Below the pieces are notes generated by a model, which worked only from the letters and a program-made list of their open reading frames with translations, did not search any database and was not told the DNA's origin. The translations under genes and the position numbers were made by a program. A DNA stretch of 64,000 bases from the NCBI GenBank assembly GCA_963664875.1, contig OY761611.1, forward strand, positions 2,048,001 to 2,112,000, written 5' to 3'. This DNA is from Candidatus Kapaibacterium sp. (GTDB lineage Bacteria > Bacteroidota > Ignavibacteria > Kapaibacteriales > UBA2268). Positions 28,397 to 44,025 of the stretch are shown here, in pieces (position 1 is the first letter of the stretch; each line of letters begins with the position of its first letter).

Positions 28397-29200
28397 TTAG
28401 ATATAATCATCATTATTCTTTACTGGAATCAAATCATCCCATTTAACTTGTTTGTCTTCAAGTAAGATATTTTTAAGTTCATTGTTGAAATAGATCTTAT
28501 TATATGCAAGCCAACCTTTTCCATATATCTCTGCTGATCTTACTATTGGAAGAGTGACTTTTTCTTTAAATGGCGGAATAAAATCATCTATAATTGGATT
28601 AAATTTCTTTGTCCCACAAACTTCACATGTTTTTTCTAAATATTTCTCAATGTCAATTGGGAATTTTAATCTGGGAATTTCAAGCTGTACTATCTCTTCA
28701 AAAGGAATATCCTTTTTATGATTAATAACTTCTCTGTTACCTATACCAAGTGGTTCTAATCTTTTTGTGTAATATTCTTTCTCAACAAAAATTGCATCAT
28801 ATTCCCAAGTTGTCGTAAAAAACTTATTTTTTTTCAGCGAAGGTATTTTTGATAATCTAAAGGGATTGATTTGGTATTTCAGAGCTTTACAACTTGGACA
28901 TAGTTTATTATCATAAACTATTGTTTTATAAATAATATTATTATCAGGCATAGGAAACCCATACTCTCTAAAACCGCCATATTCTACATATCGAGCCTCT
29001 AATACTTCTGGTTTTGTAAATTGTGCAATAATTCTGATTCGTGATTTTTCTCCTGTCATTAAAATATCTTCGTGTTCTTTAAAAAACATCAAAGGAACTT
29101 TTATGAAAGAATTATTTTTAAATTTAATACCATGAGACTGAATGAATATAATTTTTTTTTCTATTTCATGACGAGTATATACTATAACTACTTTTTCCAT
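28397..29200 (-). CDS. Putative immunity protein, cassette 7 (two CxxC motifs)
   Basis: Starts immediately after the toxin stop (29202); CPSC and CEVC. Confidence 0.7.
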   Translation of the reverse strand: MEKVVIVYTRHEIEKKIIFIQSHGIKFKNNSFIKVPLMFFKEHEDILMTGEKSRIRIIAQFTKPEVLEARYVEYGGFREYGFPMPDNNIIYKTIVYDNKLCPSCKALKYQINPFRLSKIPSLKKNKFFTTTWEYDAIFVEKEYYTKRLEPLGIGNREVINHKKDIPFEEIVQLEIPRLKFPIDIEKYLEKTCEVCGTKKFNPIIDDFIPPFKEKVTLPIVRSAEIYGKGWLAYNKIYFNNELKNILLEDKQVKWDDLIPVKNNDDYI

Positions 29201-29201
29201 T

Positions 29202-30275
29202 TTACTTTCCAATTTTATCAAGATATTCTAATAATATATTTTTTACTTCTGGCAATTCTTTATGAATTTCTTCTACGGCCTCCCTAAGATCTTCTGCAGA
29301 GAAATTTTTAGTATGCGGTAGATCTTTTGCATTCTTTCTACCTATCCAATTTACCCATACTTTGTTAAATTCCTTGTGTTCATCCCCAGTTAAAACAATG
29401 CAAGGTATATCATCTGCAGAAACTTCAAGAAATTCAGCAAATCTTTTTTCAATTAAATGATGTACTTCCAAACCTTTTATACCACTTTTATCAGCCGCCT
29501 CTCTAAGAACTTTATAAGTCCCTATCCCAAAATCATCAGCATATCGAAAAACTTTCAATCCTGTGCCAGCACCTTCTCTAATAATTAGTCTAGCAGTTTG
29601 TCGTACTGTACCTTTTACACAAGTTAATGGAAGAGCTGCTAATTGAACATTTCCTGATATTTCTGATATATCTGTAGCAATTTCTCTTTGAGCTGGTGGA
29701 AGATAAGAATATTCTGTTATTTCTCCTAAGAGTCCCCAAGTTGCAAACTCACTAAACGTAACACTGATGGAAGCATAAAAACCGTTTACGAAAGAAAGTC
29801 TTCTTTCAAATTCAGCCATTTTTTCATCATATACTCTTTTCTTTTCGGCTTGTTCTGCTTCATATTCAGCTCTTTCTTCATCTGTTCGATGAGCTTCTAC
29901 AACTGCTTTTCCTTTAGTGACACTCCACTTCTTCCCCCCTATATTTACAAATTTACTCCCTTCATGATCAATTTCATCTCCTGTTTCATAATCGGCAGGG
30001 TTATAAGTATCCGCAGGGTTGGTTTCCGCAACTAACCCCAAGGGATCCATAAAAAATATTGGATTATTATTAAATGTCGAATAAGCAGACTGATTAGAGA
30101 AAAAAGCACCCATTGGATCCAAATTCCACCTCCTCGCAGTCCGCGAGTCATACATCCAAAACATTGCATGATAGCTATTCCCCAATCCCGCTATCTCATC
30201 ATCACGCTCCATGCCATTGAATCCGAAGCGAGCTAATGTGCTGCCATCCTGATAGTAGTTATCCGGCACTAACAT
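29202..30275 (-). CDS. Orphan Rhs C-terminal toxin, cassette 7, HNH/AHH-like nuclease tip
   Basis: FGFNGMERDDE core end, DPLGL cleavage-type motif, tip EVHHLIEKRF...CIVLTGDEHKEF. Confidence 0.8.
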   Translation of the reverse strand: MLVPDNYYQDGSTLARFGFNGMERDDEIAGLGNSYHAMFWMYDSRTARRWNLDPMGAFFSNQSAYSTFNNNPIFFMDPLGLVAETNPADTYNPADYETGDEIDHEGSKFVNIGGKKWSVTKGKAVVEAHRTDEERAEYEAEQAEKKRVYDEKMAEFERRLSFVNGFYASISVTFSEFATWGLLGEITEYSYLPPAQREIATDISEISGNVQLAALPLTCVKGTVRQTARLIIREGAGTGLKVFRYADDFGIGTYKVLREAADKSGIKGLEVHHLIEKRFAEFLEVSADDIPCIVLTGDEHKEFNKVWVNWIGRKNAKDLPHTKNFSAEDLREAVEEIHKELPEVKNILLEYLDKIGK

Positions 30276-30430
30276 CCCAAAGGGACGCGTCCCAAGGGAT
30301 AGTAATCATTTTTTGAAAGAACTTTTAAGCGTGGCAGACTATAGTTTTCTCTATATTTATAATCTGCAAAAGTTAGACGCACATTGCCAAGGTGGTCAGT
30401 TAGCTCGTATTGTTTGTGACCTATTTGGCG
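30170..30430 (-). repeat. Rhs-core repeat with 14-nt palindromic insertion
   Basis: GGGACGCGTCCC hairpin within the YYPFG codons near 30281-30299. Confidence 0.9.
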
Positions 30431-30468
30431 AAAAACATCTCAAAACCTGCTCCATTCCCCTCAAGAGG

Positions 30469-31660
30469 CAGGGATGATTTGTTCTTTGTAAATATCATAT
30501 AATATAGTAAATTATAGAAAGCCAAACACAAACTTTTCTAATCTGGGGGGATTTATGGAAAAGCAAACGTTAGTAAATTATCTTGATAAGTTGACAGATA
30601 AGCGTCGCAGGGAAGGCACACGCCATAATCAATCATTTGTATTATTGCTGGTTTTGATGGCGACTATGAGCGGACAATATGGCTATCGTGGCATAGAAAG
30701 ATTTATAAAGAAGAATGCCGAAGACATACTGAAATATTTAAAGCCTCATAAAGATAGATTACCAACTTACGCAACAATTTTTAGAGTGGTAAATAATATA
30801 GATTTTGATGAATTTGCACAGATTTTTAAAGAGTGGTCAAAAGTTTATGCAAAGCCTCAAAGCGGTGAAATAATCAGTATAGATGGCAAAGCTTTGAAAG
30901 GCACATTAGTAGAATACAATTCGAAATACCAGAACTTTATAAGCATTGTTTCTGCACATTCTCAATCAAGTAAAATGTCACTAAGTATAAGCAAATATGA
31001 GAATAAAAAATCAAGCGAGATAAGCGTAGTTGAAGAAATGATTAGAGATTTAGAACTGACTGGCGTAGTCTTTACAATGGATGCTTTACACTGTCAAAAA
31101 AACTCTAAGAACAATTGTTAGTACTAACAACAACTATATTATTTGCGTAAAAAAGAATCAAGGTCGTTTGTACAAAGAACTGGAGAGTTTGAGTTCGAGC
31201 TGGTCAACAAAGATCGATTATTATAAAACCGAAGAAACTAATAGAGACAGACGAGAAACTCGTAAAGTATATGTATATTCATTAAACGATAAAATTAAGA
31301 ACGAGTGGTCCGGATCACAGCAATTAGTAAAGGTACAAAGGATTAGAAAAACAAAACAAATGCAGGAAGTTCATGTACATTATTATTTGAGCAGTCAAGA
31401 AAAACCAGCAAAGTATTATATGCAGAGCATACGAGGACATTGGGGCATTGAAAACCAGCTACATTGGGTAAAGGATGTGGTAATGAAAGAAGATGCTTGG
31501 AAAGTGAGAAATACACAAGCAGCTTCAGTCATGAGTATAATAAAGTCAATTTGTATCAATATTTTTAGGTCAAAGAAGCGTATTGATTGTACCAACTTTT
31601 TCTATGAGACTGCCGACAATGTAGAACTATTGGTGACTTTGTTAGAATGAATCAACCCTG
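30469..31660 (+). mobile_element. ISAs1-family insertion sequence, copy 1 (1192 bp)
   Basis: TIRs CAGGGATGATT / AATCAACCCTG; flanks CCTCAAGAGG and CCTCTTGAGG. Confidence 0.93.
30555..31650 (+). CDS. ISAs1 transposase split at an A7 run (ORFs 30555-31121 and 31081-31650)
   Basis: IDGKAL, SEI, TMDALHCQK, VKKNQ, RGHWGIENQLHWVKDV..KED. Confidence 0.9.
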
Positions 31661-31842
31661 CCTCTTGAGGGGTGCGTGAGCGAAGCGAGGGCGGGGTGGA
31701 TAAAACCTAATATAAATCACTTCCCCCGAAAAAAATATCGCTAAATTTATCTATGTAAATTACATTTTCCTATATTGAAACAGTTGTGCTTCGAGAGATT
31801 CCACCCCGGCACTACGTGCCACCCCTCAACGAGGGGAATTTT

Positions 31843-31937
31843 CTTTTATGCGTGGCAGACTATAGTTTTCTCTATATTTATAATCTGCAAAAGTTAGACG
31901 CACATTGCCAAGGTGGTCAGTAAGCTCGTATTGCTTC
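31843..31937 (-). repeat. Truncated tip-less Rhs-core repeat
   Basis: KQYELTDHLGNVRLTFADYKYRENYSLPRIK then directly the 184-bp element. Confidence 0.88.
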
Positions 31938-32166
31938 AACTATATGTGCAGAGCTTTTTTACCCTGCACATATTTTCCATCGAAATTTGGAAATAAATTT
32001 GCAAAGAGCTTTGAGGCTCAAATACAACATTCATAATTTTAAATCTTATTTGCCAATCTAAAGCACAATGACTATGTCTATGTCTATGTCCACTTCAAAT
32101 AAATAATACTATCAAATAGCATATACTTTTTTAGTATTTTTTTACATATTTCTAACTAACAGGACA

Positions 32167-32634
32167 TCACTTTATATGGAGTGAATCATCACCTATTGGT
32201 AGCTCTATAAATATATAGATACTATCTTGAACCGTTTCAAAGTAGAAATTACTGTTTTCAGGAAAAAACTGTTGTAATTTGATTTTGTCAGACTCTGGAC
32301 TTACATAGTTAAATGCCCCTCCGTAATTAAAGTGTAGCTCCTCAATAGATGAGTTAATACTGAAAGAAATATTCGTATCCAATAAACATCTTTCGTCAAG
32401 ATAACCTGGAATATCATCATTTAGATTTACTACACCTTTATTTACAATGATTTCCGCTATACTAAAATATTTTTTCTTCTTTTTTACAACAAAGAAGTAG
32501 TCGTAACTAATCACACCAGGATTTACTTTCTGAGACAATTTCAATTGAATACCTCGAAAAATATATCTTTTCTCGGAGTTCATACTCGAACATGCCAGTA
32601 ACATTGCAAATATAAAAAGATACAATCTATACAT
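32167..32634 (-). CDS. Putative immunity lipoprotein, cassette 6
   Basis: Lipobox LLAC; AAGGAG upstream; 18 nt after the toxin stop. Confidence 0.7.
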   Translation of the reverse strand: MYRLYLFIFAMLLACSSMNSEKRYIFRGIQLKLSQKVNPGVISYDYFFVVKKKKKYFSIAEIIVNKGVVNLNDDIPGYLDERCLLDTNISFSINSSIEELHFNYGGAFNYVSPESDKIKLQQFFPENSNFYFETVQDSIYIFIELPIGDDSLHIK

Positions 32635-32652
32635 TATAATCTCCTTAGTCTT

Positions 32653-33648
32653 CTAATATTCGTCAATTTCTCCGTTTTCAAAATTTGATGGTCGTGTACC
32701 TACTTCATCTAATGTTGATTGACCTTCAATAGTTTGTGCATTCCGATAATAATTATCAAAATCTTCCCCTTCATAATTATAAAATATTATTGGTTTTCCA
32801 ATTCTAATTTCCATAGGATATTTAGTATTAGACCAATGATCATCCCAAGTAGTGCGATTAAAAATAGTTTTATACTTACCAATTCCGATGTGTCCTAACG
32901 AAACTGCAATATCATTCAAATACCAATGTGTGTTTCCAGAAGTATTATCTGAAGTGATTCCAGCAATATTGCTATTCATATTAGAACGTGGATTACCCCA
33001 TGGATGAATCAAACCAAATGCATGTCCCATTTCATGCTGAATTATTGCAATAATTCCATCAACTCCAACTCCACTTACATCAGAAGGTTCTGAAACAAAA
33101 GTCTGATTGAAAGTATGAATACCTGCCATGGTTATAGGTAGTTCTTCTTCTTGATCATTGTCAGGATCTCTTACCACTGGAACTAGTTCAAAATTATCTC
33201 TACTCAAATAATTAAGTCGATTAGTAATTCCTTTAGGTTTTGTTGCTTGTTCTTCTTCAGAGACTTCCTCAATCATTACATCAAATTGTACATCATACTC
33301 TATTATTTCATCACCTGTATCAACAACATATTTAACACTTTGATCCCTAATATTCTCAGCAGCAGATTTTATATATCCCTTTTCAACATCTCCAAGATTT
33401 TTTGGGATAGTAAAAACAGCAGCCATAACTATAACTTTACTTTCATGATTTATATAAATCTCATAATCATCTCCACCTGGATCTTTATATATCACTGGAT
33501 TGTTTCCAAATGAATTATAAGGACTCTTAGTTGGATACTTTTTCTTTGCTGGATCCAAACTAAACCACCTCGCGATTCTTGCATCATAATTCCTGTTTGC
33601 AGTATTGTATGTATTCCCAACACCTGCAATCTCATCATCACGTTCCAT
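32653..33648 (-). CDS. Orphan Rhs C-terminal toxin, cassette 6, zincin metallopeptidase tip
   Basis: YDARIARWFSLDP, DPGGD, HEMGHAFGLIH (HExxHxxGxxH) followed by a Met-turn-like NM. Confidence 0.82.
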   Translation of the reverse strand: MERDDEIAGVGNTYNTANRNYDARIARWFSLDPAKKKYPTKSPYNSFGNNPVIYKDPGGDDYEIYINHESKVIVMAAVFTIPKNLGDVEKGYIKSAAENIRDQSVKYVVDTGDEIIEYDVQFDVMIEEVSEEEQATKPKGITNRLNYLSRDNFELVPVVRDPDNDQEEELPITMAGIHTFNQTFVSEPSDVSGVGVDGIIAIIQHEMGHAFGLIHPWGNPRSNMNSNIAGITSDNTSGNTHWYLNDIAVSLGHIGIGKYKTIFNRTTWDDHWSNTKYPMEIRIGKPIIFYNYEGEDFDNYYRNAQTIEGQSTLDEVGTRPSNFENGEIDEY

Positions 33649-33885
33649 GCCATTACACTTCGACTCGCTTTGCTCGCTCAGTGACCTTTGAAGCGTGCGA
33701 ATGTGCTGCCATCCTGATAGTAGTTTTCCGGCACTAACATACCAAAGGGATAGTAGTCACTTTTTGAAAGAACTTTTAAGCGTGGCAGACTATAGTTTTC
33801 TCTATATTTATAATCTGCAAAAGTTAGACGCACATTGCCAAGGTGGTCAGTTAATTCGTATTGTTTATGACCGATTTGGCGTAAT
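33615..33885 (-). repeat. Rhs-core repeat with 35-nt REP-like insertion introducing a stop
   Basis: CACTTCGACTCGCTTTGCTCGCTCAGTGACC near 33656-33686 replaces the GF codons, giving ARFKGH-stop. Confidence 0.9.
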
Positions 33886-33979
33886 GTATTATGTACTCTT
33901 TTCACCTTCGGCTAAGCTTTTTTGAAAATTATCTTTCAAAGAGCTATAGCTGCTTAATTTAATTATTTACTAAATCTAA

Positions 33980-34396
33980 TTACCAATGATACCCAGGGGC
34001 ATGCGCCTTTATCATACCATACTTTATAGTCATAATTTCGATCTTAGTAGATGAAACATATACTAAATATCCTACTCTTTGGTGATTTACATAAAAATAT
34101 CTTGTAATAGGATCATATGTTTTATAGAACTTCTTTAGATTCATACTATCTCCAGCTGCAAACTGAAATTCTCTGCTGAGCTTTTCTTCTAACTCTGGCG
34201 TATAAGTAAGTGTATCATTGATGTAGATCAAATCGAAATCTAGATCATTATGAGTTTCTTGTATAATCCATCGTCCGTTCAACAATGTGTCTATATTAAC
34301 ATCATGATAATTCATAACTCGGTAGAAACAAATTCCGAATAAAAGTAATATAACATAAACAACCATTTTAACTTTACTTACTACTGGCATCTTCAT
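33980..34396 (-). CDS. Putative immunity protein, cassette 5 (N-terminal membrane anchor)
   Basis: Overlaps the toxin 3' end; hydrophobic N-terminal helix. Confidence 0.65.
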   Translation of the reverse strand: MKMPVVSKVKMVVYVILLLFGICFYRVMNYHDVNIDTLLNGRWIIQETHNDLDFDLIYINDTLTYTPELEEKLSREFQFAAGDSMNLKKFYKTYDPITRYFYVNHQRVGYLVYVSSTKIEIMTIKYGMIKAHAPGYHW

Positions 34397-35501
34397 TCTT
34401 TTTTTCTCCAGCTTGAAATTGAGGATTTTTTGCTTCACCATTTTTTGTAACCATCATCGGATATGGTACATAATTACCTAAGTAAGAGCTAACTTTTTCT
34501 AAAAATGAGCTATAAGAGCCTGTTTCAGGTCTAGATACCATATAAGTTGGAATATGAATACTAAACCCAGGCAACCCTAAACTCCACCACATAAAAGCAG
34601 GATCTTTGTCATAAAAATTGCTTAATGTAGAAGGATATGATGAAGCAGGCTGACCATATATCAATACATTATTAAAGTTTTCAAGCTTAGAAATTCTAGT
34701 TGTGAATCTCTCGTCAAAATCCATTTTTAAACAACTTGTATTGCAACCGTAAAACAATGCTCTATTATTTTCGGAATTCTTATCCCAGTTAAAATTGATA
34801 CTTCCCCATCCTTCCATGCTCATGTGCCAGTCATCAACTGGAAACTTAGAAGTCTCAAGAGCCCCCATTGGTCCATCTTTTTCTCCACTGTGAGACCAAA
34901 TCCCAAATTCTACTGTATTACCATACTTCTCTTTATAAAAATGCACGTTTATATTAACTTTGGGAATTAATTCTGCCAAATCTTCATACTCAATCAAAAC
35001 CACTTTATCTCTTTTGGGATCAAAATATTTGCTTTTTTCTATATCGCTTTTTCTAGTTATAGCAGCAGATTTGACCATTTCGTTCCCTCCTAAAGGTTCA
35101 TTCACAACATATGCCAAAATATATAAGCTATCACCATTTTTGTCTATACCATTTATAGGTGTATTGGCAGCAAATGCAAAAGGAGATAAGTTATGAAATT
35201 TATTCTTGAATCGATCCAATTTTGGAAACCTCGCTATCCGACTATCATACTGCCTTGCCCCGAAATTCAAGCTATTCCCAACACCTGCTATCTCATCGTC
35301 TCGTTCCATGCCATTGAATCCGAAACGAGCCAATGTGCTGCCATCCTGATAGTAGTTATCCGGCACTAACATCCCAAAGGGATAATAATCATTTCTTGAA
35401 AGAACTTTCAAACGTGGCAGACTATAGTTTTCTCTATATTTATAATCTGCAAAAGTTAAACGCACATTGCCAAGGTGGTCAGTTAGCTCGTATTGCTTCA
35501 A
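34374..35501 (-). CDS. Orphan Rhs C-terminal toxin, cassette 5, possible His-Cys peptidase-like tip
   Basis: Uninterrupted core repeat, FGARQYDSRI, DKNGD; tip with WSHSG..DGP and FYGCNT. Confidence 0.78.
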   Translation of the reverse strand: MKQYELTDHLGNVRLTFADYKYRENYSLPRLKVLSRNDYYPFGMLVPDNYYQDGSTLARFGFNGMERDDEIAGVGNSLNFGARQYDSRIARFPKLDRFKNKFHNLSPFAFAANTPINGIDKNGDSLYILAYVVNEPLGGNEMVKSAAITRKSDIEKSKYFDPKRDKVVLIEYEDLAELIPKVNINVHFYKEKYGNTVEFGIWSHSGEKDGPMGALETSKFPVDDWHMSMEGWGSINFNWDKNSENNRALFYGCNTSCLKMDFDERFTTRISKLENFNNVLIYGQPASSYPSTLSNFYDKDPAFMWWSLGLPGFSIHIPTYMVSRPETGSYSSFLEKVSSYLGNYVPYPMMVTKNGEAKNPQFQAGEKKNEDASSK

Positions 35502-35626
35502 CTATATGTGTAGAGCTATTTTTACCCTACACATATTTCATTCTGTTTTTGAAAATAAATTTTAAAAGAACTTGATTTGTTTATTAGATTGGTTATACTA
35601 AATATTATTAAATTATTCTAAACAAA

Positions 35627-36082
35627 TTAACTTTGAAAGTCATTACCAGTATACCTTTCACCTTTCAGATAAGTTCGTAATCTTTCTATTACATGAATAC
35701 TATCATATACTTCACAGCGTTCTAACCCCATACACTTTTCTCTTGTCGATTCACTAATATCCCCAGTATTAGCATTATATAATAAAAACCTACCTGGTGT
35801 TACTGTATCTTCAATAAATTGATCAGGAAGTATCTGTAATGATTCTCTAATTAATAATTTTCCTACTCTTGGCCATTCCCCTTTAGTAATTATATCTCTA
35901 TAAATAGCGATTATGAACAAAACTTCGCTTTTAGCAAGTACTGAAATGTTTTCAATTGGTGCTGTACTATGATATTCGAAAAATGCATAACATGCATTCC
36001 CAAGGAATTGTGTATAAAAAAAGTAATTATCTACCCTCAACTCATATATAGCACCAATTGTCTGTTTCTGCCTTTTCATCAA
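35627..36082 (-). CDS. Putative immunity protein, cassette 4 (Imm26-like)
   Basis: IGAIYELRV..YFFYTQFLG...GEWPRVG...GLERCEV pattern; AGGAG upstream. Confidence 0.7.
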   Translation of the reverse strand: MMKRQKQTIGAIYELRVDNYFFYTQFLGNACYAFFEYHSTAPIENISVLAKSEVLFIIAIYRDIITKGEWPRVGKLLIRESLQILPDQFIEDTVTPGRFLLYNANTGDISESTREKCMGLERCEVYDSIHVIERLRTYLKGERYTGNDFQS

Positions 36083-36088
36083 ATTCTC

Positions 36089-37234
36089 CTATTTTTTTGT
36101 TTTGGTAGTTTTATTATATGCATCAATATATGCATCTTTTTTAGGATTTTTTGGACTAATACCATTTATAGCATTCCCTGAAGTTCCACCTGTTGACTGT
36201 GCACCACCATGCTTGTCAATTAAAATTTGCTCACGACCTCGAGCTTCCATATATTTATCAAACGAAGCATCAAGCTGTGCTTTTCCCCAGCCATCTTCAG
36301 TACGTTTATGATGAGTAGCATCTCGTCTAGCAACATTCTCCAAAGGAGTGCCTGTACCAGATGTCCTCCCAGAATAAACTTGACCTGTTTTAGAATTTGT
36401 TTTAGTATAAGTTTGATATGTCTTTTTTTTGTTAGTTTTGCTCTTTTCAGTTTTATTACTTACTTTTTCAGAAGTAGTACTTTCAACATTAGATTTTTTA
36501 CCTTTTTGAGATTGTTTTGCAACATCCTTTGTTTTATCGACTATTGCATCCTTGGTAGTTTCTTTCGTTGTTTCTTTAGCAGTCGTAGTGGTGACTTTTT
36601 TGGAAGTGGCTTCAACTGTTTTTTCTCCTACTTCTTCCAGTACTTCTTTACCAGTTTTTTCTAATGCTTCTTTACCAACATGTTCCACAACTTCTACTAC
36701 AACATGTTCTGTTACTTCCGCAGTAGCTCTATAAGTCAAACCTAAACATGTCCCACCAGGTGTAGCTAAACCAGCTAAATCCCAACCCAATGCACCTACA
36801 GAAATAGGGTTAACTTTTCCTGTAGTAAAATAATCGTATCCAATTTCACCAATATCATATATAATAAAACCAATATCTAGAACAAAATCTACTACAATGT
36901 CACCATCCAGCTCCTTTTTGTTAATAGGATTAAGCATTACATAACTATAACCAGAGTATTCAGGATATATTACAGTAGCTCCGTCTATTGATAACCATCT
37001 TGCGAGCCTTGGATCGTAGTTCCTTTCGGGATAATTTAAATTATTCCCCACACCTGCGATTTCATCATCACGCTCCATACCATTGAATCCGAAGCGAGCT
37101 AATGTGCTGCCATCCTGATAGTAGTTATCCGGCACTAACATCCCAAAGGGGTAGTAATCACTTTTTGAAAGAACTTTTATACGTGGCAGACTATAGTTTT
37201 CTCTATATTTATAATCTGCAAAAGTTAAACGCAC
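36089..37234 (-). CDS. Orphan Rhs C-terminal toxin, cassette 4, GIY-YIG/URI-like nuclease tip
   Basis: Uninterrupted core, RNYDPRLARW; tip YQTYTK...VYSGRTSG...RR...H...RGREQ...GNAINGIS. Confidence 0.8.
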   Translation of the reverse strand: MRLTFADYKYRENYSLPRIKVLSKSDYYPFGMLVPDNYYQDGSTLARFGFNGMERDDEIAGVGNNLNYPERNYDPRLARWLSIDGATVIYPEYSGYSYVMLNPINKKELDGDIVVDFVLDIGFIIYDIGEIGYDYFTTGKVNPISVGALGWDLAGLATPGGTCLGLTYRATAEVTEHVVVEVVEHVGKEALEKTGKEVLEEVGEKTVEATSKKVTTTTAKETTKETTKDAIVDKTKDVAKQSQKGKKSNVESTTSEKVSNKTEKSKTNKKKTYQTYTKTNSKTGQVYSGRTSGTGTPLENVARRDATHHKRTEDGWGKAQLDASFDKYMEARGREQILIDKHGGAQSTGGTSGNAINGISPKNPKKDAYIDAYNKTTKTKK

Positions 37235-37320
37235 ATTGCCAAGGTGGTCAGTTAGCTCGTATTGTTTGTGACCGATTTGGCGAAAAACATCTCAAAACCT
37301 GCTCCATTCCCCTCTTGAGG

Positions 37321-38512
37321 CAGGGTTGATTCATTCTAACAAAGTCACCAATAGTTCTACATTGTCGGCAGTCTCATAGAAAAAGTTGGTACAATCAATA
37401 CGCTTCTTTGACCTAAAAATATTGATACAAATTGACTTTATTATACTCATGACTGAAGCTGCTTGTGTATTTCTCACTTTCCAAGCATCTTCTTTCATTA
37501 CCACATCCTTTACCCAATGTAGCTGGTTTTCAATGCCCCAATGTCCTCGTATGCTCTGCATATAATACTTTGCTGGTTTTTCTTGACTGCTCAAATAATA
37601 ATGTACATGAACTTCCTGCATTTGTTTTGTTTTTCTAATCCTTTGTACCTTTACTAATTGCTGTGATCCGGACCACTCGTTCTTAATTTTATCGTTTAAT
37701 GAATATACATATACTTTACGAGTTTCTCGTCTGTCTCTATTAGTTTCTTCGGTTTTATAATAATCGATCTTTGTTGACCAGCTCGAACTCAAACTCTCCA
37801 GTTCTTTGTACAAACGACCTTGATTCTTTTTTACGCAAATAATATAGTTGTTGTTAGTACTAACAATTGTTCTTAGAGTTTTTTTGACAGTGTAAAGCAT
37901 CCATTGTAAAGACTACGCCAGTCAGTTCTAAATCTCTAATCATTTCTTCAACTACGCTTATCTCGCTTGATTTTTTATTCTCATATTTGCTTATACTTAG
38001 TGACATTTTACTTGATTGAGAATGTGCAGAAACAATGCTTATAAAGTTCTGGTATTTCGAATTGTATTCTACTAATGTGCCTTTCAAAGCTTTGCCATCT
38101 ATACTGATTATTTCACCGCTTTGAGGCTTTGCATAAACTTTTGACCACTCTTTAAAAATCTGTGCAAATTCATCAAAATCTATATTATTTACCACTCTAA
38201 AAATTGTTGCGTAAGTTGGTAATCTATCTTTATGAGGCTTTAAATATTTCAGTATGTCTTCGGCATTCTTCTTTATAAATCTTTCTATGCCACGATAGCC
38301 ATATTGTCCGCTCATAGTCGCCATCAAAACCAGCAATAATACAAATGATTGATTATGGCGTGTGCCTTCCCTGCGACGCTTATCTGTCAACTTATCAAGA
38401 TAATTTACTAACGTTTGCTTTTCCATAAATCCCCCCAGATTAGAAAAGTTTGTGTTTGGCTTTCTATAATTTACTATATTATATGATATTTACAAAGAAC
38501 AAATCATCCCTG
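37321..38512 (-). mobile_element. ISAs1-family insertion sequence, copy 2 (1192 bp)
   Basis: Same TIRs; perfect 10-bp direct target duplication CCTCTTGAGG (37311-37320, 38513-38522). Confidence 0.93.
37331..38426 (-). CDS. ISAs1 transposase split at the same A7 run
   Basis: Both ORF translations are identical to copy 1. Confidence 0.9.
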
Positions 38513-38701
38513 CCTCTTGAGGGGTGCGTGAGCGAAGCGAGGGCGGGGTGGATAAAACCTAATATAAATCACTTCCCCCGAAAAAAATATCGCTAAATTT
38601 ATCTATATAAATTACATTTTCCTATATTGAAACAGTTGTGCTTCGAGAGATTCCACCCCGGCACTGCGTGCCACCCCTCAACGAGGGGAATTTTTCTTTT
38701 G

Positions 38702-38930
38702 CTGCCATCCTGATAATAGTTTTCCGGCACTAACATCCCAAAGGGACGCGTCCCAAGGGATAGTAATCATTTTTTGAAAGAACTTTTATACGCGGCAGAC
38801 TATAGTTTTCTCTATATTTATAATCTGCAAAAGTTAGTCGCACATTGCCAAGGTGGTCAGTTAGCTCGTAATGTTTGTGACCGATTTGGTGTAATGCTTG
38901 CCGCCTTGTGCCTTTTGCTTTGGCTACTTG
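38702..38930 (-). repeat. Tip-less Rhs-core repeat with 14-nt insertion
   Basis: QVAKAKG leader, core repeat, GGGACGCGTCCC, ends at QDGS then the 184-bp element. Confidence 0.9.
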
Positions 38931-38980
38931 GGAAATTTTTAAAGAGCTTAGAAACTTTGAATCTTCCTAAATACTTTAGC

Positions 38981-39844
38981 CTATTTCTTGTTTTTCTTTT
39001 TCATTTCTTTCTTTGTTTTTGTCCATAAGTCAGAGCGGTATTGGAGATATTCTGTTGCAGTCATATTTTTTTTCTTTATTAAAGTTTGCTTGAAGTCATC
39101 AAGCCTATTTTCTAAATATAGTTTAGTCCAAAAATGTTTTTGTTTTTCCCAATTTTCACCGGGTTTATCTGCAAAATCAAATAACTTAATCTCTATTATC
39201 TCATGATTATTTATTTCAATTGGTCTTGCTCCATCTATTTTCAATAGCTCTTTACGTGGAATTATAGGATATATCTCATTCCCAAAATACATTACCGGTG
39301 CTGCTCTTAAAACAGCCACAAAAACAGCTTCTTTAAATTTACTCCATTTTAGCGGATTTCGATCATCCATTTCTTCATAATCACTAATACCCAATCTTTC
39401 TTCTTCATTATAGTAATATGAGGTAATCAATGAAACGTTTTTGTTCAAAACATTTCTTAATATATTATGATTGTCAAACAACATCTCATAACTATCAAAA
39501 TATCGGAATGATATGGTTAAACCTATCCTTGTTGAAACCATATCATTTATCAGTCCTAGAGTAATTCCAAAAGAAATAAAAGGTTGTAACTCCTTTTTTC
39601 TATCCTTTTTACATCTCAATGTTATAGAAGTATATCCAGTATCCATTTCAGATTTTGTATAACTTTCTAATGCTTTGGTTTTATCATATTTCATATCTTT
39701 GGGTAAATAAAACTCATGATAACCAAAGGACATTTTTTCAGGTTCAAAACCTGTTAAATTCAATACAGCCTCAAATATTTTTGAGTATTCAGTATGAAAG
39801 TTTTCTACATCTAATCTCAAATAAATCGCACATACATTCATCAT
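38981..39844 (-). CDS. Putative immunity protein, cassette 3
   Basis: Starts right after the toxin stop (39846); soluble; no recognised motif. Confidence 0.65.
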   Translation of the reverse strand: MMNVCAIYLRLDVENFHTEYSKIFEAVLNLTGFEPEKMSFGYHEFYLPKDMKYDKTKALESYTKSEMDTGYTSITLRCKKDRKKELQPFISFGITLGLINDMVSTRIGLTISFRYFDSYEMLFDNHNILRNVLNKNVSLITSYYYNEEERLGISDYEEMDDRNPLKWSKFKEAVFVAVLRAAPVMYFGNEIYPIIPRKELLKIDGARPIEINNHEIIEIKLFDFADKPGENWEKQKHFWTKLYLENRLDDFKQTLIKKKNMTATEYLQYRSDLWTKTKKEMKKKNKK

Positions 39845-39845
39845 G

Positions 39846-40874
39846 TTAAACCTCATCTATACTAACTTGAACTTTGTTATCTAAAGACTTGCCATGAGCA
39901 TCTAATTTTTTTCTTAAATCATTTAATTGCTCAGAAGTGTACTTGCCTTTCGGAACATAGATTTGTAATATTCTCTCACTTGAGCTATTTAACCCTCGTA
40001 ACCCTGATAAAGCAGTCATTTTTTTCTTAAATTGAGAAGGACTAATCTTTGTTGCTGCAGTACTAGTTACATCTACTACATTATCTATTGCAACATAAAT
40101 ATTACCTTGAAATAAGCCATATGTAGGATTGTTTTCCCTTAATTCTACATTTGCATTTTTATATCCTTTATACTTAGTTGCTAAAGCATATTTTTCTAAT
40201 TTTTTTCTATTTTGAATTCCACCTGAAAAAGCTCCTCTAGCAAGTTCTAAATCCGGGTCGCCATATTTCTTGCTCAACTTATTAAAATTATCTTCACCAA
40301 TCAAACTAACAAGTTTTGCTCGGGCTTTTTTGTTTGAAAGTAACTCAATAAATTTATCTGCAGTGAGCTCAGATACAAAACCAAGCATTAATGCACCGCC
40401 GACATCACTTGTTGAATAGGATTCCCCGTCTATAGTTTTCTTCACAAAAGTAGATGCAACATCTGCGGCTGCCTCTGCAAAAGCTTTTGCGTATTTGCCA
40501 CCCGGCACTGAAACAGCACCCCAGCATGCTGCCTTACCTACGTCCCACCAATCAATAGACTCAAAAGCTGCTCCAAATGAATTCACATTATCATCAAATA
40601 GATAATTTAAACCCATCTGCATAATCATTTCAGTACCGGCAGCAACACCCATTTGTGCTATAGTCTTTGCAATTATAGCGGCGATAACTGCTACATTGCC
40701 ATCTGCATCTCTTAGGAATATAGGATTGCTAGATGCAAATAGATAAGGGGAGATACTAGGAAATGTTGCTGAATACGGATCAATATCCCATCTTCTTCCG
40801 ATTCTTGAATCATAACCATGGCTACCGAATAAGTAATGATTCCCAATCCCAGCTATTTCATCCTCTCGCTCCAT
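39846..40874 (-). CDS. Orphan Rhs C-terminal toxin, cassette 3, tip of unknown class
   Basis: YDSRIGRRWDIDP, DADGN, hydrophobic helical linker, basic C-terminal domain. Confidence 0.78.
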   Translation of the reverse strand: MEREDEIAGIGNHYLFGSHGYDSRIGRRWDIDPYSATFPSISPYLFASSNPIFLRDADGNVAVIAAIIAKTIAQMGVAAGTEMIMQMGLNYLFDDNVNSFGAAFESIDWWDVGKAACWGAVSVPGGKYAKAFAEAAADVASTFVKKTIDGESYSTSDVGGALMLGFVSELTADKFIELLSNKKARAKLVSLIGEDNFNKLSKKYGDPDLELARGAFSGGIQNRKKLEKYALATKYKGYKNANVELRENNPTYGLFQGNIYVAIDNVVDVTSTAATKISPSQFKKKMTALSGLRGLNSSSERILQIYVPKGKYTSEQLNDLRKKLDAHGKSLDNKVQVSIDEV

Positions 40875-41120
40875 GCCATTACACTTCGACTCGCTTTGCT
40901 CGCTCAGTGACCTTTGAAACGAGCTAATGAGCTGCCATCCTGATAATAGTTATCCGGCACTAACATACCAAAGGGACGCGTCCCAAGGGATAGTAGTCAC
41001 TTTTTGAAAGAACTTTTAAGCGTGGCAGACTATAGTTTTCTCTATATTTATAATCTGCAAAAGTTAGTCGCACATTGCCAAGGTGGTCAGTTATTTCGTA
41101 TTGTTTGTGACCAATTTGGC
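40840..41120 (-). repeat. Rhs-core repeat carrying both the 14-nt and 35-nt insertions
   Basis: CACTTCGACTCGC...CAGTGACC near 40882-40912 and GGGACGCGTCCC near 40973-40984. Confidence 0.9.
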
Positions 41121-41144
41121 TAAAAACATCTCAAAACCTGCTCC

Positions 41145-41328
41145 ATTCCCCTCTTGAGGGGTGCGTGAGCGAAGCGAGGGCGGGGTGGATAAAACCTAAT
41201 ATAAATCACTTCCCCCGAAAAAAATATCGCTAAATTTATCTATATAAATTACATTTTCCTATATTGAAACAGTTGTGCTTCGAGAGATTCCACCCCGGCA
41301 CTGCGTGCCACCCCTCAACGAGGGGAAT
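41145..41328 (-). mobile_element. 184-bp MITE/REPIN-like element, intact copy
   Basis: Reverse complement of 8525-8708 with few substitutions; defines the empty ISAs1 target. Confidence 0.87.
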
Positions 41329-41338
41329 TTTTCTTTTC

Positions 41339-41552
41339 TGCCATCCTGATAGTAGTTATCCGGCACTAACATCCCAAAGGGGTAGTAATCATTTCTTGAA
41401 AGAACTTTTATACGTGGCAGACTATAGTTTTCTCTATATTTATAATCTGCAAAAGTTAGTCGTACATTGCCAAGGTGGTCAGTTAGCTCGTATTGTTTGT
41501 GACCGATTTGGCGTAATGCGTGCCGCCTTGTGCCTTTTGCTTTGGCTACTTG
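41339..41552 (-). repeat. Tip-less Rhs-core repeat
   Basis: QVAKAKGTRRHALRQIGHKQYEL...YYQDG then the 184-bp element. Confidence 0.9.
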
Positions 41553-41618
41553 GGAAAATAAATTTTTGAAGAACCATGTGTTTATTTGCAAATAATATTA
41601 CTTTTAAATGGATTTTAT

Positions 41619-42410
41619 TTATCTTTTCTTTTTTGCTTCTAATCTCTCGTCCATGATTTGATTGCAATCATGCCCCCATGATTGGAGGGAATCTAATATT
41701 TCCATTTTTGTATACCAATTTGAGGATCCCTTGGGATATTTTTCATTTATCAAATATTTACAAATATCAATCTCATTCCCTTCCATATCTACTGCCCATA
41801 TAATGTCATAATTAGTTTTCGTATTAAAAAGTAAGAATTTTACTACATCTAGTTTACTTCTAAGTAATGCCCACCTTAATGCAGTCCATTTACTCTCACC
41901 AGAAAATTGTTTATTCACCTTCATGTAGTCAACTTTTGCTCCATTGTTTACTAAATATTTTGTTTTTGTCAATGAAACTACAACAGCTCCAAACAAAGGT
42001 GTTGTACATTGAGGATGATTAGAGACAATATTAATTGCAGCCCCATTATCCACTAATACTTTCAATATATCAAAACTACAACTAGGATATGTTGAATAAA
42101 ATAAAGGAGTCATCTTCTTATGATCAAAGACATTAGGATTTGCACCATTGTTTAGTAATGATACACATGAGCTTAAATCATTTCTAAAAGTAGACCAATG
42201 TAATAGTGTAAATCCAAAATTTGGCTCTTGAATATTTAAAAGTTGCCTATATTTATAAACATTGGAAGTATCTCCAGCCTCTAAATCTTTAGCGATACTA
42301 TATACTTCAGTATCTGCAAATATTTCAATATCCCATCCTCTTAATTCTTTGTTGTCAGAGCAACCAATTATTACAATGTATAAAATTACCCAAATATACA
42401 TAGTTTTCAT
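41619..42410 (-). CDS. Ankyrin-repeat lipoprotein, putative immunity protein, cassette 2
   Basis: Lipobox IIGC; TLLHW..LLNNGANPN, TPLF..LVDNGAAIN repeats; TAATG coupling with the toxin. Confidence 0.85.
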   Translation of the reverse strand: MKTMYIWVILYIVIIGCSDNKELRGWDIEIFADTEVYSIAKDLEAGDTSNVYKYRQLLNIQEPNFGFTLLHWSTFRNDLSSCVSLLNNGANPNVFDHKKMTPLFYSTYPSCSFDILKVLVDNGAAINIVSNHPQCTTPLFGAVVVSLTKTKYLVNNGAKVDYMKVNKQFSGESKWTALRWALLRSKLDVVKFLLFNTKTNYDIIWAVDMEGNEIDICKYLINEKYPKGSSNWYTKMEILDSLQSWGHDCNQIMDERLEAKKKR

Positions 42411-43387
42411 TACTTAATTCCCTCTTCATCCATTATCTCTATAACTTTCTCCATTCTATGCTTTAATCCACTCTCGATACCTAAAAATAATAAACCTACT
42501 CGTTTTAAGAATAAAGCTCCCCAAGAAGTAGATGCTTCAAGGTATATTTTGTCCCCTTCTGCACTTTGATTAATTAAACTTTGTGCCACATCAACAAATT
42601 CACCTTCAACAATATAAGCTTTGATATTTGGTTTGGTGATTGCTGATACATTCTCTTTATAAACTTTAGCTAGTGAAGCTGCATTAAAAGTCACAGCATC
42701 AAATCCAGTTGAGTAACTATTTGCTGAAGCTAAAGCACCTCCCAATGAATGACCAACAAATGTTAAATCGACTGATTCTCCCATTTTAGTTTTCATTATT
42801 TGTGAGTTTTTTATTGAACGAACAAATTGATCATCTTTTTTTCCTAATACATTTTTTGCATCTGTTTTGCAATCTTCCCAATCATCAGTTCCTGCTGTAA
42901 CATATGCATATTCGTATACTCTTTTGCCATCTTTTTCTCCAATTTGGCGCCTATAAATAGCAGAATTAAAACCAGTCTTACTATCAGTTAATACTATGTT
43001 TTTATCAATATCATCATAATCATTATAAAGTCGCCAACCATTCAAATCATCTCTTGCTTCTCTTTTACCTTTTTCATCGTGAATATAGTACCCATTTTCA
43101 GTATTATATACATCCGCTGCCATCGCAGCTGCTTCTCGATCAGTGGGCTTATCTCCTAACGGATCTATTATTTTAATTGGATTCAGCAAAAATGTAGAAT
43201 ACCTACTTTGCCCATACATATCCACAGGATCCTGATTCCACCTTCTGGCAGTTCTGTTGTCATACATCCAAAACATTGCATGATAGCTATTCCCAACACC
43301 GGCAATCTCATCTTCCCTTTCCATACCATTGAATCCGAAACGAGCTAATGCGCTGCCATCCTGATAGTAGTTATCCGGCACTAACAT
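42410..43387 (-). CDS. Orphan Rhs C-terminal toxin, cassette 2, alpha/beta-hydrolase lipase tip
   Basis: DPLGD; AGTD oxyanion motif, GHSLGG nucleophile elbow, TFNA, C-terminal His. Confidence 0.87.
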   Translation of the reverse strand: MLVPDNYYQDGSALARFGFNGMEREDEIAGVGNSYHAMFWMYDNRTARRWNQDPVDMYGQSRYSTFLLNPIKIIDPLGDKPTDREAAAMAADVYNTENGYYIHDEKGKREARDDLNGWRLYNDYDDIDKNIVLTDSKTGFNSAIYRRQIGEKDGKRVYEYAYVTAGTDDWEDCKTDAKNVLGKKDDQFVRSIKNSQIMKTKMGESVDLTFVGHSLGGALASANSYSTGFDAVTFNAASLAKVYKENVSAITKPNIKAYIVEGEFVDVAQSLINQSAEGDKIYLEASTSWGALFLKRVGLLFLGIESGLKHRMEKVIEIMDEEGIK

Positions 43388-43542
43388 ACCAAAGGGACGC
43401 GTCCCAAGGGATAATAATCATTTCTTGAAAGAACTTTTAGACTCGGCAGACTATAGTTTTCTCTATATTTATAATCTGCAAAAGTTAGTCGCACATTGCC
43501 AAGGTGGTCAGTTAGTTTGTATTGTTTGTGACCGATTTGGCG
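43290..43542 (-). repeat. Rhs-core repeat with 14-nt insertion
   Basis: GGGACGCGTCCC near 43394-43405. Confidence 0.9.
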
Positions 43543-43596
43543 ACACGAATCATGAATCTCCTCCTCAGAACGTCAACAAAGAAACGTAAATACAAT

Positions 43597-44025
43597 TCAA
43601 ATATCTACATCTTTGTTAACAACATGTTTATGAACAGAGTACAAATCAAATACCAATACTGCCGTATTTATTGTAAATAAAGGTAGATACAATGCAAGCA
43701 ATAGCTTATAGTTATTTGAAACAATGTCAATTCCTAGACATACTTTCCATATAAGTATACTCATGGTTATATATAAGATCACCAATACAGTGCTCTTGCG
43801 TAGAGAAAAACTTTGCTGTTTCCTCAACAAATATCCATATGTTAACATATAAATACTGATAGGCAAAAACAATACGTTGCCTCTACTCTGATTGAAGATT
43901 ATTCCACAGATGAAGCCAGTCAATATTCCCAAAAAAGTTCCTAATACTGGTATAAATATAATATTTAATATAAATTGTTTAAAGATCTTTCTCTTTAGTT
44001 TCTTCATTAGTATTTTTTTCATCAT
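43597..44025 (-). CDS. Putative immunity membrane protein, cassette 1
   Basis: About four TM helices; overlaps the 3' end of the rhs gene. Confidence 0.7.
   Translation of the reverse strand: MMKKILMKKLKRKIFKQFILNIIFIPVLGTFLGILTGFICGIIFNQSRGNVLFLPISIYMLTYGYLLRKQQSFSLRKSTVLVILYITMSILIWKVCLGIDIVSNNYKLLLALYLPLFTINTAVLVFDLYSVHKHVVNKDVDI

Follow-up and report, generated by a model that had tools for sequence, protein, structure and literature searches.

The analysed stretch of DNA (64,000 nt, referred to as the window) contains an array of Rhs-derived toxin and immunity genes on the minus strand. Its head is a truncated Rhs gene with a weak VWA7_N match. No full-length Rhs gene is present at the array in the window, and no RHS_repeat match above the cut-off was found across the whole genome. 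The array consists of the following parts.

43979..45622, minus strand: 5'-truncated Rhs gene (last YD repeats and end of the core, from the translation) fused to a C-terminal toxin domain.
43597..44025, minus strand: candidate immunity gene of 142 aa, an ORF without a Pfam family, assigned from its position after the toxin.
41619..43551, minus strand: orphan cassette with core fragment 43551-43302, lipase-like toxin 43387-42410 and ankyrin-repeat immunity gene 42410-41619.
38981..41130, minus strand: orphan cassette with core fragment 41130-40881, toxin 40874-39846 and immunity gene 39856-38981.
37320..38700, minus strand: ISAs1-type insertion sequence (DDE_Tnp_1_assoc and DDE_Tnp_1, read as two ORFs).
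35627..37299, minus strand: orphan cassette with core fragment 37299-37042, toxin 37234-36089 and Imm26-family immunity gene 36082-35627.
33980..35522, minus strand: orphan cassette with a core fragment, toxin 35501-34374 and immunity gene 34441-33980.
32167..33898, minus strand: orphan cassette with a core fragment carrying a 35-nt insert, HExxH metallopeptidase-like toxin 33648-32653 and immunity gene 32634-32167.
28397..31960, minus strand: region with truncated core fragment 31960-31843, 204-nt repeat 31847-31644, an ISAs1-type copy and the last full cassette.
30555-31650, plus strand: second ISAs1-type copy, between the 204-nt repeat 31847-31644 and the last full cassette.
30447-28397, minus strand: last full cassette with core fragment 30447-30190, toxin 30275-29202 and immunity gene 29221-28397.

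The array in the window is decayed, with a truncated main gene, two IS copies and frameshifting inserts. Core fragment 43551-43302 is interrupted by a 14-nt palindromic insert, and core fragment 41130-40881 contains inserts of 14 and 35 nt. A truncated core fragment (41530-41340) and a 204-nt repeat (41336-41133) lie just upstream of the cassette at 38981..41130. The ISAs1-type IS at 37320..38700 is likewise located within a 204-nt repeat, where it interrupts the core fragment at 38908-38700.

Between the stop codon of an immunity gene and the next orphan Rhs core fragment lies an element of about 70 nt, whose 5' end is the motif pointed out in the initial annotation. The five copies described there are present on the minus strand, and a weaker copy placed near 9776-9800 was borne out as a sixth one in a small plus-strand cluster. 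The start of the motif had been likened to boxA. This short signal in the RNA brings NusB and ribosomal protein S10, together with NusA and NusG, to RNA polymerase during transcription, and the factors bound there make the polymerase resist Rho-dependent termination. The copies and two variant linkers are given below, with mismatches counted against the boxA of the genome's own rRNA (rrn) operons.

43574..43585, minus strand: variant linker GTTTCTTTGTTG, 11 nt past the immunity stop codon, boxA-like with one extra T.
41510..41577, minus strand: element copy (nhmmer E=1.8e-14), boxA-like GTTCTTCAAAAA at 41574-41563, 2 mismatches, hairpin degenerate.
38888..38951, minus strand: element copy (E=4.6e-10), boxA-like GCTCTTTAAAAA at 38947-36, 2 mismatches, a 5-nt deletion directly past boxA, hairpin degenerate.
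35504..35575, minus strand: element copy (E=1.3e-8), boxA-like GTTCTTTTAAAA at 35571-35560, 1 mismatch, hairpin 35536-35504 (counted by hand).
33878..33948, minus strand: element copy (E=2e-8), boxA-like GCTCTTTGAAAG at 33944-33933, 2 mismatches, hairpin degenerate.
31942..32013, minus strand: element copy (E=1.8e-8), boxA-like GCTCTTTGCAAA at 32009-31998, 2 mismatches, hairpin 31973-31942 (counted by hand).
28385..28396, minus strand: variant linker GTTTCTTTGCTG, abutting the last immunity stop codon and followed by the terminal core remnant 28331-28167.
9779..9840, plus strand: sixth element copy (E=3.8e-9), boxA part decayed with 5 mismatches, 17 nt past ORF 9127-9762 and ahead of a core fragment and the Zeta-toxin-like ORF 9898-10578.

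In the window, the proposed boxA lies on the transcribed strand, 17-158 nt past immunity-gene stop codons and directly ahead of the next orphan cassette. None of the six copies is exact (1, 2, 2, 2, 2 and 5 mismatches). Since the array is decayed, these sites may be out of use now. Not every orphan carries boxA. The main element is absent at two junctions, past the immunity genes ending at 43597 and 28397, which hold the only two matches to GTTTCTTTGYTG in the window. The core fragments at 43551, 41130, 37299, 30447 and 28331 are without the element, and no boxA-like match was found in a further array of the same genome (L054), in the 35-kb G034 array (L025-L027), or in L017, L021 and L029-L031.

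The motif clearly exceeds the AT-rich background. With an nhmmer profile of the element, seven sites at E<=1e-7 were found in the 3.83-Mb genome; the next best had E=1.6, so that no match with E<1 was found beyond these copies. All seven are at the 5' edges of Rhs fragments and in the same orientation as the fragments. A search with the 25-mer consensus, allowing up to 4 mismatches, returned three sites in the genome, every one an element copy. The rrn boxA 12-mer with up to 2 mismatches was found 5 times in 726 nt of junction sequence versus 0.127 expected (Poisson 2.5e-7, for intervals defined after viewing the array). A degenerate 14-mer pattern gave 12 matches versus 0.64 expected, a count that is inflated because 7 of the 12 are Rhs coding sequence AGTTCTTTCAAAAA (residues KVLSK), with the intergenic motif making up the other 5.

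The likeness to boxA was compared with the genome's own leaders. In all four rRNA operons, GGCGTTCTTTGAAAACAGGAAGC is located 102 nt ahead of the 16S gene, and the boxA 12-mer of these leaders, GTTCTTTGAAAA, is identical to the first 12 nt of the genus consensus of the element. The exact 12-mer occurs five times in the genome versus 1.55 expected from base composition. Four occurrences are the rrn leaders. The fifth belongs to a CRISPR array located downstream of cas3, where it is 7 nt ahead of the first repeat, at a site conserved in G004. Among nine leader loci inspected in relatives, eight have the same 12-mer just upstream of AGG(A/G)AGCA and one has GTTCTTTGACAA. The use of boxA in CRISPR leaders has been described (Stringer et al. 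2020, as cited in passages of PMC13753749 and of bioRxiv 10.64898/2026.07.09.737519). The presence of the 12-mer alone is not diagnostic, since relatives such as G010 have it within other short tandem repeats, and in Rhs cassettes of G085 it is part of the coding sequence (DPFFEKF). The best reading, held with moderate confidence, is that the motif is a Nus-factor boxA that provides each cassette with one antitermination site.

Across the genus, the element was found in 21 distinct copies, in which the boxA start is exact in 5, has one mismatch in 3, two in 9 and three or more in 4. Conservation starts abruptly at boxA and the sequence upstream is unrelated, so the earlier statement that the flanks differ holds on this side. 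It fails downstream, where homology between cassettes continues for about 45-60 nt through a hairpin and then into the Rhs core fragment. TTTATTTTCC, which adjoins boxA, is equally conserved in the genus and is absent from the rrn boxA context. Within the genus, boxA conservation is, as far as the sequences go, inseparable from conservation of the whole repeat unit. The motif might then be just the first bases of a block of linker and Rhs fragment that is copied or homogenised by homologous recombination, and its likeness to boxA fortuitous or a functionless relic. The unbroken homology from motif into Rhs fragment, the conservation of TTTATTTTCC and the divergence of the window copies in a decayed array agree with this, and the Rhs core has GTTCTTTCAAAA as coding sequence, so similar words exist nearby.

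Other genera make this explanation unlikely. At the eight orphan junctions of G028 array 1, the exact 12-mer is present in six, one has a single mismatch and one is decayed. In G028 array 2, two of three junctions are exact and the third has GATCTTTGAAAA; an extra exact copy lies 84 nt ahead of another fragment. In G034, both orphans have the exact 12-mer, 5-7 nt ahead of the start of Rhs homology. At the junctions of G028 and G034 the sequence downstream is unrelated and the Rhs join point is unlike that of this genus. What the three genera share immediately 5' of their orphan Rhs fragments is the 12-mer alone, in differing flanks. The 12-mer also equals a boxA of rrn and CRISPR leaders that occurs only five times in the genome. 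In addition, where the orphans carry boxA, the full-length main Rhs genes of G028 and G034 simply continue as ordinary coding sequence, which argues against a homology remnant of upstream rhs sequence. The copies stand ahead of orphans; the last cassette of G034 (L058) and that of G028 array 1 are not followed by any boxA that could be found.

Downstream of boxA, the copies of this genus share a GC-rich hairpin with compensatory changes. In the covariation analysis, 83% of cells were paired versus 27-44% in slid controls, 6 of 10 pairs had changes on both sides, and the observed values were reached by none of 500 shuffles. The predicted folds of copies 35504..35575 and 31942..32013 have -18.1 kcal/mol (z=-4.1) and -25.2 kcal/mol (z=-4.6). 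Between copy 35504..35575 and the copy at 32010, both bases of one stem base pair are changed and pairing is kept. boxA is unpaired in the folds having a strong hairpin. This covariation indicates that the hairpin is under structural constraint. It was not found at the G028 and G034 junctions; judged from these alignments, the hairpin is genus-specific and boxA is not. The imperfect inverted repeat TTTGAAA-N6-TTTCAAA, proposed earlier for the 3' half of the motif, is not supported: it is not conserved, and its pairing was no better than in shuffles or slid controls.

The constrained hairpin could belong to another kind of cis element of the orphan cassette, that is, a promoter or operator, or a signal for RNA processing or stability in which the hairpin, as a 5' or 3' structure, protects the RNA or is cleaved to separate cassette transcripts. 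In G010, a repeated unit has promoter-like TAATTCTG followed by the 12-mer, so the family does contain promoter-boxA modules. Read on the reverse strand, the motif gives TAAATTTG or TAAATTTT, which we take as near the -7 box of Bacteroidota promoters. Such an element is nonetheless improbable here. Upstream of boxA there is no conserved sequence to act as a promoter, and the full promoter pattern TTG-N17-22-TAnnTTTG is absent on the array strand from 27.5 to 47 kb. No T-run in terminator register follows the hairpin on either strand, and the hairpin is limited to the genus while boxA is not.

The initial annotation had also offered site-specific recombination for cassette capture. In such a reading, a recombinase or transposase would recognise the motif, with or without the hairpin, and join cassette tails to Rhs; integron attC sites, Xer/dif-like sites and the ends of rolling-circle elements would be comparable. 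In favor, the element has a fixed end that, within the genus, meets Rhs sequence at four or more different positions, the G034 boxA is only 5-7 nt from the join, the hairpin could form in single-stranded DNA, and mobile DNA such as IS copies and small inserts tends to enter the arrays. We consider this quite doubtful, because the expected partner is missing (a tyrosine integrase is near one of nine arrays examined and eight have no linked recombinase; a scan of 55 of the 80 flanking frames >=230 aa, plus the window, turned up neither HUH nor rolling-circle genes), the inverted repeat is not conserved, the hairpin is missing at the G028 and G034 junctions, and identity with the rrn boxA is left unexplained. 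Moreover, the window is near the skew minimum, between divergently oriented rrn operons, and so near the replication origin, not a dif-bearing terminus. A conserved short element between unrelated cassettes, plus a hairpin, is also a feature of integron attC sites and of the orphan-immunity arrays that Bacteroidales carry together with recombinases; they differ in the linked integrase and in that the conserved part here equals the rrn boxA. The earlier interpretation is partly supported, in its boxA reading but not in the palindrome or the recombination site.

If the motif acts as boxA, recruitment of NusB and S10 at each cassette would make the polymerase resistant to Rho-dependent termination just where translation stops and a long, probably untranslated stretch opens. 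This stretch comprises an Rhs core fragment that lacks a start of its own and is often frameshifted, and then the toxin domain. Transcription begun upstream, from the main Rhs gene, would be licensed anew whenever it crosses a cassette boundary, and downstream orphan immunity genes would stay transcribed although internal promoters are not evident. boxA before each spare cassette probably serves to keep the spare immunity genes transcribed. It is inferred from sequence that Nus factors bind there and protect from Rho, that the array yields one polycistronic transcript and that the orphan toxin parts go untranslated. In favor of antitermination, no terminator-like sites were found past the immunity genes on the array strand. 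On the other side, Nus factors at a boxA can also enhance Rho termination in some contexts (10.64898/2026.07.09.737519). Rho loading sites are usually C-rich and G-poor. The fragments past boxA are not clearly so (C/G 0.74-1.14), which counts against the antitermination reading.

Polymorphic toxin cassettes are a related known system, and orphan Rhs or C-terminal displacement arrays have reportedly been found in Enterobacteria (Jackson 2009; Koskiniemi 2014). As in those arrays, units of core fragment, toxin C-terminal domain and immunity gene lie downstream of an Rhs gene and are associated with ISAs1-type (H-repeat-like) insertion sequences; the main Rhs gene is truncated in this genome. In a literature search, no description of a conserved boxA at Rhs cassette boundaries was found. 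The phage lambda nut site is boxA followed by the boxB hairpin, and the proposed boxA would similarly be the first part of an element that continues through a spacer to the structurally conserved hairpin. However, with about 30 nt the spacer exceeds that of nut sites, the hairpin has an unrelated sequence and does not occur in the other two genera, and we know of no N-like protein for the element. With CRISPR-leader boxA, the array shares the need to transcribe a long series of repeated, largely untranslated units from one end, whereas a CRISPR array has one boxA and here boxA stands at each cassette boundary, with translated immunity genes in between. Compared with rrn leaders, the element is outside an rRNA operon and occurs once per cassette within a protein-coding array, the rrn flank is AGGAAGCA instead of TTTATTTTCC and the downstream hairpin, and the window copies have 1-5 mismatches. 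Both are on the transcribed strand upstream of poorly translated or untranslated RNA, and the genes for Rho and NusB are encoded in the genome.

The motif lies in an orphan Rhs cassette array that spans about 45.6 to 28.2 kb of the window (minus strand), and a second, smaller cluster is located on the plus strand at 7–10.6 kb. In each cassette unit, a 120–260-nt Rhs core fragment (RQIGHKQYELTDHLGNVR...DYYPFGM...NGMERDDEI) is followed by a C-terminal toxin domain, which varies between units, and then by a small gene. Core fragments were located with the Rhs fragment of the window as the query, in place of Pfam RHS_repeat, which gave no match in this genome at E ≤ 0.001. With 9–11 core-fragment copies, the window has the make-up of an orphan Rhs toxin-immunity array. 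Pfam identified Imm26 and ankyrin-repeat immunity genes and gave weak metallopeptidase, lipase and VWA7_N-like matches for the toxins, and no Pfam family was found for most of the array ORFs. At its head, the array has an Rhs gene that is truncated at the 5' end and starts near 45622, and the genome searches detected no full-length Rhs gene. Full-length Rhs genes (2706–2754 aa) with orphans of the same kind behind them are present in some relatives, which database records name as Chlorobiota or Candidatus Kapaibacterium MAGs.

The window array is decayed. The core fragments have no start of their own at the 5' end, several are frameshifted through inserts, and internal ATG or TTG starts are present. 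The array is interrupted by two ISAs1-type insertion sequences (IS), a 204-nt repeat and small inserts, as follows.

30520–31660, plus strand: ISAs1-family IS (DDE_Tnp_1_assoc and DDE_Tnp_1), two overlapping ORFs
37320–38500, minus strand: ISAs1-family IS (DDE_Tnp_1_assoc and DDE_Tnp_1), two overlapping ORFs
31644–31847, 38496–38699 and 41133–41336: 204-nt repeat, copies 91–97% identical
30282–30293, 38743–38754, 40973–40984 and 43394–43405: 14-nt insert with the palindrome GGGACGCGTCCC, in four core fragments
33655–33689 and 40881–40915, minus strand: identical 35-nt insert, in two core fragments, just before NGMERDDE

The left end of the IS occurs 7 times in the genome, and the same IS family (H-repeat) is associated with Rhs elements in E. 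coli. The 204-nt repeat interrupts core fragments, and the IS has inserted into two of its copies; its plus strand has a hairpin (CCCCTCAACGAGGGG) with a T-run behind it, similar to a terminator. The 14-nt insert is placed between the DYYP and FGM codons, which shifts the frame, and has no further copies in the genome. Other palindromic inserts are found at the same codon position in loci of relatives (L001 near 7050, L020 near 9300). The 35-nt insert looks like a very small dispersed repeat, since the genome has 17 sites for it when up to 4 mismatches are allowed.

Five minus-strand copies of a ~25-bp boxA-like motif had been reported between 31986 and 41575 in the initial annotation, and all of them were confirmed at these coordinates. 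Its statement that the flanks differ holds for the upstream sequence, which is unrelated among copies, but not for the downstream sequence, which is homologous. The motif is the first third of a ~70-nt element, in which AGTTCTTTGAAAATTTATTTTCC, a spacer and a GC-rich hairpin are followed directly by Rhs sequence. When the genome was searched with an nhmmer profile of the element, seven sites were obtained at E ≤ 1e-7 and the next match had E = 1.6, so the motif exceeds background. Six of these sites are in the window, one of them a degenerate plus-strand copy at 9779–9840, and the seventh (C1:3801925) has no boxA part; all seven mark the 5' edge of an Rhs fragment. The 25-mer consensus, searched with a tolerance of 4 mismatches, occurs at three sites only in 3.83 Mb, each an element copy. 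A degenerate 14-mer pattern gave 12 matches in the window versus 0.64 expected, a count that overstates the case because seven of the 12 are the coding word AGTTCTTTCAAAAA within core fragments.

In 7/7 copies of the genome, the element is oriented like the downstream Rhs fragment, toxin gene and immunity gene, and the same rule applies to every copy in the loci L001, L003, L004, L018–L020, L023, L024, L028, L057 and L058. The boxA sites lie 17–158 nt after an immunity-gene stop codon. In the junction sequence of the window (726 nt, intervals drawn by the analyst), 5 boxA sites with up to 2 mismatches were found versus 0.127 expected. GTTTCTTTGYTG occurs just twice in the 64 kb, at the two junctions that have no element, and by sequence it looks like boxA with an additional T. 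No boxA was detected at several orphans or across some whole arrays. An Rfam scan of 27–47 kb of the window with an E-value threshold gave no match at the motif.

The genome has four rRNA operons, and the leaders of all four carry GTTCTTTGAAAA, which the genus consensus of the element matches at 12/12 positions. The resemblance to boxA noted in the initial annotation was borne out by this comparison; the position of GGCGTTCTTTGAAAACAGGAAGC is 102 nt before the 16S gene in all four leaders. Five genomes of the genus gave 21 distinct element copies, and their initial 12-mers match exactly in 5, with one mismatch in 3, with two in 9 and with three or more in 4, so that 17/21 are within 2 mismatches of the rrn boxA. 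None of the window copies is exact (1, 2, 2, 2, 2 and 5 mismatches), and their variants have C at position 2, or A, T or C replacing G at position 8. Judged by sequence, these putative boxA variants are inside the range of variation of the boxA family.

The same 12-mer was found just 5' of AGG(A/G)AGCA in 8 of 9 rrn leader loci inspected in relatives, and the ninth has GTTCTTTGACAA. In two loci (L072 and L074), the 12-mer is present in the leader and again after the spacer tRNA, which is the usual rrn arrangement of boxA. The exact 12-mer occurs 5 times in the genome versus 1.55 expected from base composition. Four of the five are the rrn leaders. The fifth, conserved in the relative G004, is next to a CRISPR array that follows a cas3-like gene, 7 nt ahead of the first repeat.

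C1:1388602 (L056:3603–4260): CRISPR array, ten or more repeats of 30 nt

The last repeat of this array is adjoined by the ISAs1-type IS that is also found in the window. In two reports, boxA is described upstream of rRNA, suhB and CRISPR operons, with the consensus UGCUCUUUAACA or GNTCTTTAANA in E. coli, AUGAUCUUUGAAA in B. subtilis and GCTCTTTGAAA in M. xanthus (PMC13753749; bioRxiv 10.64898/2026.07.09.737519). By sequence, the 12-mer of this lineage fits with these published consensuses.

The motif was also found at orphan junctions in two other genera (G028 and G034). In the first array of G028, the exact 12-mer is present at six of eight orphan junctions, GTTCTTTGAAAC at another and a decayed copy at the remaining one; Rhs coding sequence begins ~10 nt after each boxA, at a point in the protein that differs from the window genus. 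The second G028 array has two exact copies, one GATCTTTGAAAA and another exact copy 84 nt before a fragment. In G034, an AHH-nuclease Rhs gene and an Imm11 immunity gene are followed by two orphans, both preceded by the exact 12-mer 5–7 nt ahead of the Rhs homology. The full-length Rhs genes of G028 and G034 have ordinary coding sequence at the position where the orphans have boxA, which indicates that the motif is not a remnant of Rhs coding sequence, an objection raised at the outset. No boxA was found after the last cassette in the G034 locus L058 or in the first G028 array.

In five relatives, the 12-mer was counted 49 times and its reversed control 11 times. Judged from coordinates, 15 of the 49 fall at Rhs junctions, 7 belong to rrn leaders and 1 to a CRISPR leader, and the others are unclassified or in ORFs. 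In relatives it also occurs within other repeats and coding sequence; the genome G010 has 46 copies versus 7 of the control word. In G010 (L066–L068, L071, L075) and G021 (L069, L070), the 12-mer lies inside short tandem repeat units with a spacing of 140–480 nt, and in G010 it is directly 3' of the promoter-like TAATTCTG. A word one mismatch from boxA, GTTCTTTCAAAA, encodes KVLSK in the Rhs core.

8449, plus strand: KVLSK codons
30310, 33761, 37162, 38771, 41001 and 44935, minus strand: KVLSK codons

The word is also present in L054, the second Rhs array of this genome, where orphan fragments start ~25–30 nt before it and have no separate boxA. The Rhs protein of other genera differs across this stretch.

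The hairpin downstream of boxA was evaluated on alignment A3. In the stem, 83% of the cells are paired versus 27–44% with the partners slid, and 6/10 pairs changed on both sides, with observed values reached by no shuffle, although these statistics overstate independence because the copies are related. Strong folds were obtained for the copies at 32010 (z = −4.6) and 35572 (z = −4.1). Between these two, a C-G pair is replaced by U-A, a compensatory change. The hairpin is weak, degenerate or absent in three of the five window copies. RNAalifold gave no consensus structure for the first 13 copies, because the degenerate copies break the hairpin. A conserved hairpin 3' of boxA resembles a nut site (boxA and boxB hairpin), but it is specific to this genus and missing from the G028 and G034 junctions. 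The hairpin was rejected as an intrinsic terminator: the terminator scan reported the element hairpins on neither strand, and on the coding strand they are followed by CAAAT or ATAG with no T-run in terminator register.

The motif could alternatively be a DNA-level recombination or cassette-capture site, which we regard as improbable. Within the genus, the element adjoins Rhs sequence at no fewer than four different positions (RQIGHKQ, KQYEL, YSYDPSGN and DYYFP), and in G034 boxA is tight against the Rhs join, as expected for such a site, but the same join pattern is expected from deletions sparing a selected element. The TTTGAAA-N6-TTTCAAA inverted repeat proposed initially did not hold up: 67.1% of the cells are paired, compared with 67.9% after shuffling and 72% after a slide of −1, so the arms, read as a tyrosine-recombinase core or attC, pair no better than the controls. 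A linked tyrosine recombinase was likewise not supported: among the flanking frames scanned (55 of 80 frames of at least 230 aa, and the window ORFs by Pfam), Phage_integrase was found near one of nine arrays (L018), with none near the other eight, including the window array, and no rolling-circle gene was found. A dif/Xer site was dropped, as the window is near the replication origin and away from the terminus, judging from cumulative GC skew (minimum at ~2.09 Mb, which is the window; maximum at 0.46 Mb) and from rrn operons diverging around 1.43–2.51 Mb.

For the boxA reading, the search of antitermination genes covered Rho and NusB, and both are encoded (Rho_RNA_bind match, 118 bits; NusB match, 100 bits, 202-aa frame). 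The terminator scan found no terminator-like site after the immunity genes on the array strand. A sigma-70-type promoter scan gave 87 hits, not above the 80.9 in shuffles, and a Bacteroidota promoter pattern had no match on the array strand; a promoter reading of the motif was rejected on these results. As no terminator-like site was found after the immunity genes and no match to the Bacteroidota promoter pattern on the array strand, the cassettes probably depend on read-through. A Rho loading signal was also rejected, as the C/G ratios of the fragments are unremarkable.

At boxA, ribosomes would leave the RNA after the stop codon and a fragment without its own start would begin. We infer that NusB–S10 binding at the putative boxA would keep the polymerase Rho-resistant up to the next translated immunity gene. 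According to one report, Nus factors at boxA are able to promote termination too (10.64898/2026.07.09.737519). We tentatively propose, as a possible but doubtful joint reading, that the cassettes are self-licensing through their own Nus-factor boxA, with the boxA tail serving assembly and KVLSK as a back-up. In this proposal, a silent array of any length and order may be transcribed from one upstream promoter, which may be the same solution as in rRNA and CRISPR arrays, by analogy, used for stored immunity genes. New cassettes may join Rhs sequence at a fixed end formed by the tail with boxA; if so, one 12-nt word would serve cassette assembly and expression alike. The near-boxA KVLSK codons may be the back-up, which L054 keeps within ~30 nt of its fragment starts.

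Orphan immunity genes are thought to protect against the toxins of neighbours. They sit behind kilobases of promoterless, probably untranslated toxin remnants, and boxA at every cassette boundary offers a concrete, testable answer to how they stay expressed. No link of boxA with Rhs, orphan or immunity arrays was found in the full-text literature, a scope with most subscription journals outside it, and we rate the motif as a known signal, putatively boxA, in a new, reiterated setting. If this is true, Nus-factor antitermination would reach beyond its known settings (rRNA operons, suhB, CRISPR arrays) to polymorphic-toxin arrays and to this little-studied lineage. With boxA as a simple sequence marker, cassette boundaries can also be searched for in arrays of this type. 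Even if the boxA reading is incorrect, the conservation of this lineage-wide linker element with its sharp boundaries still needs explanation.

Three further features were found outside the array.

46128–46172, minus strand: Acido-Lenti-1 RNA family match, 36.7 bits, just below the gathering score of 37
48991–49064, plus strand: tRNA-Phe gene, beyond the array head
50097–59271: type I restriction-modification locus with an HsdM-like methylase at 50097–52178, beyond the array head

The Acido-Lenti-1 match falls in the gap between a pyrophosphatase gene and the truncated Rhs gene.
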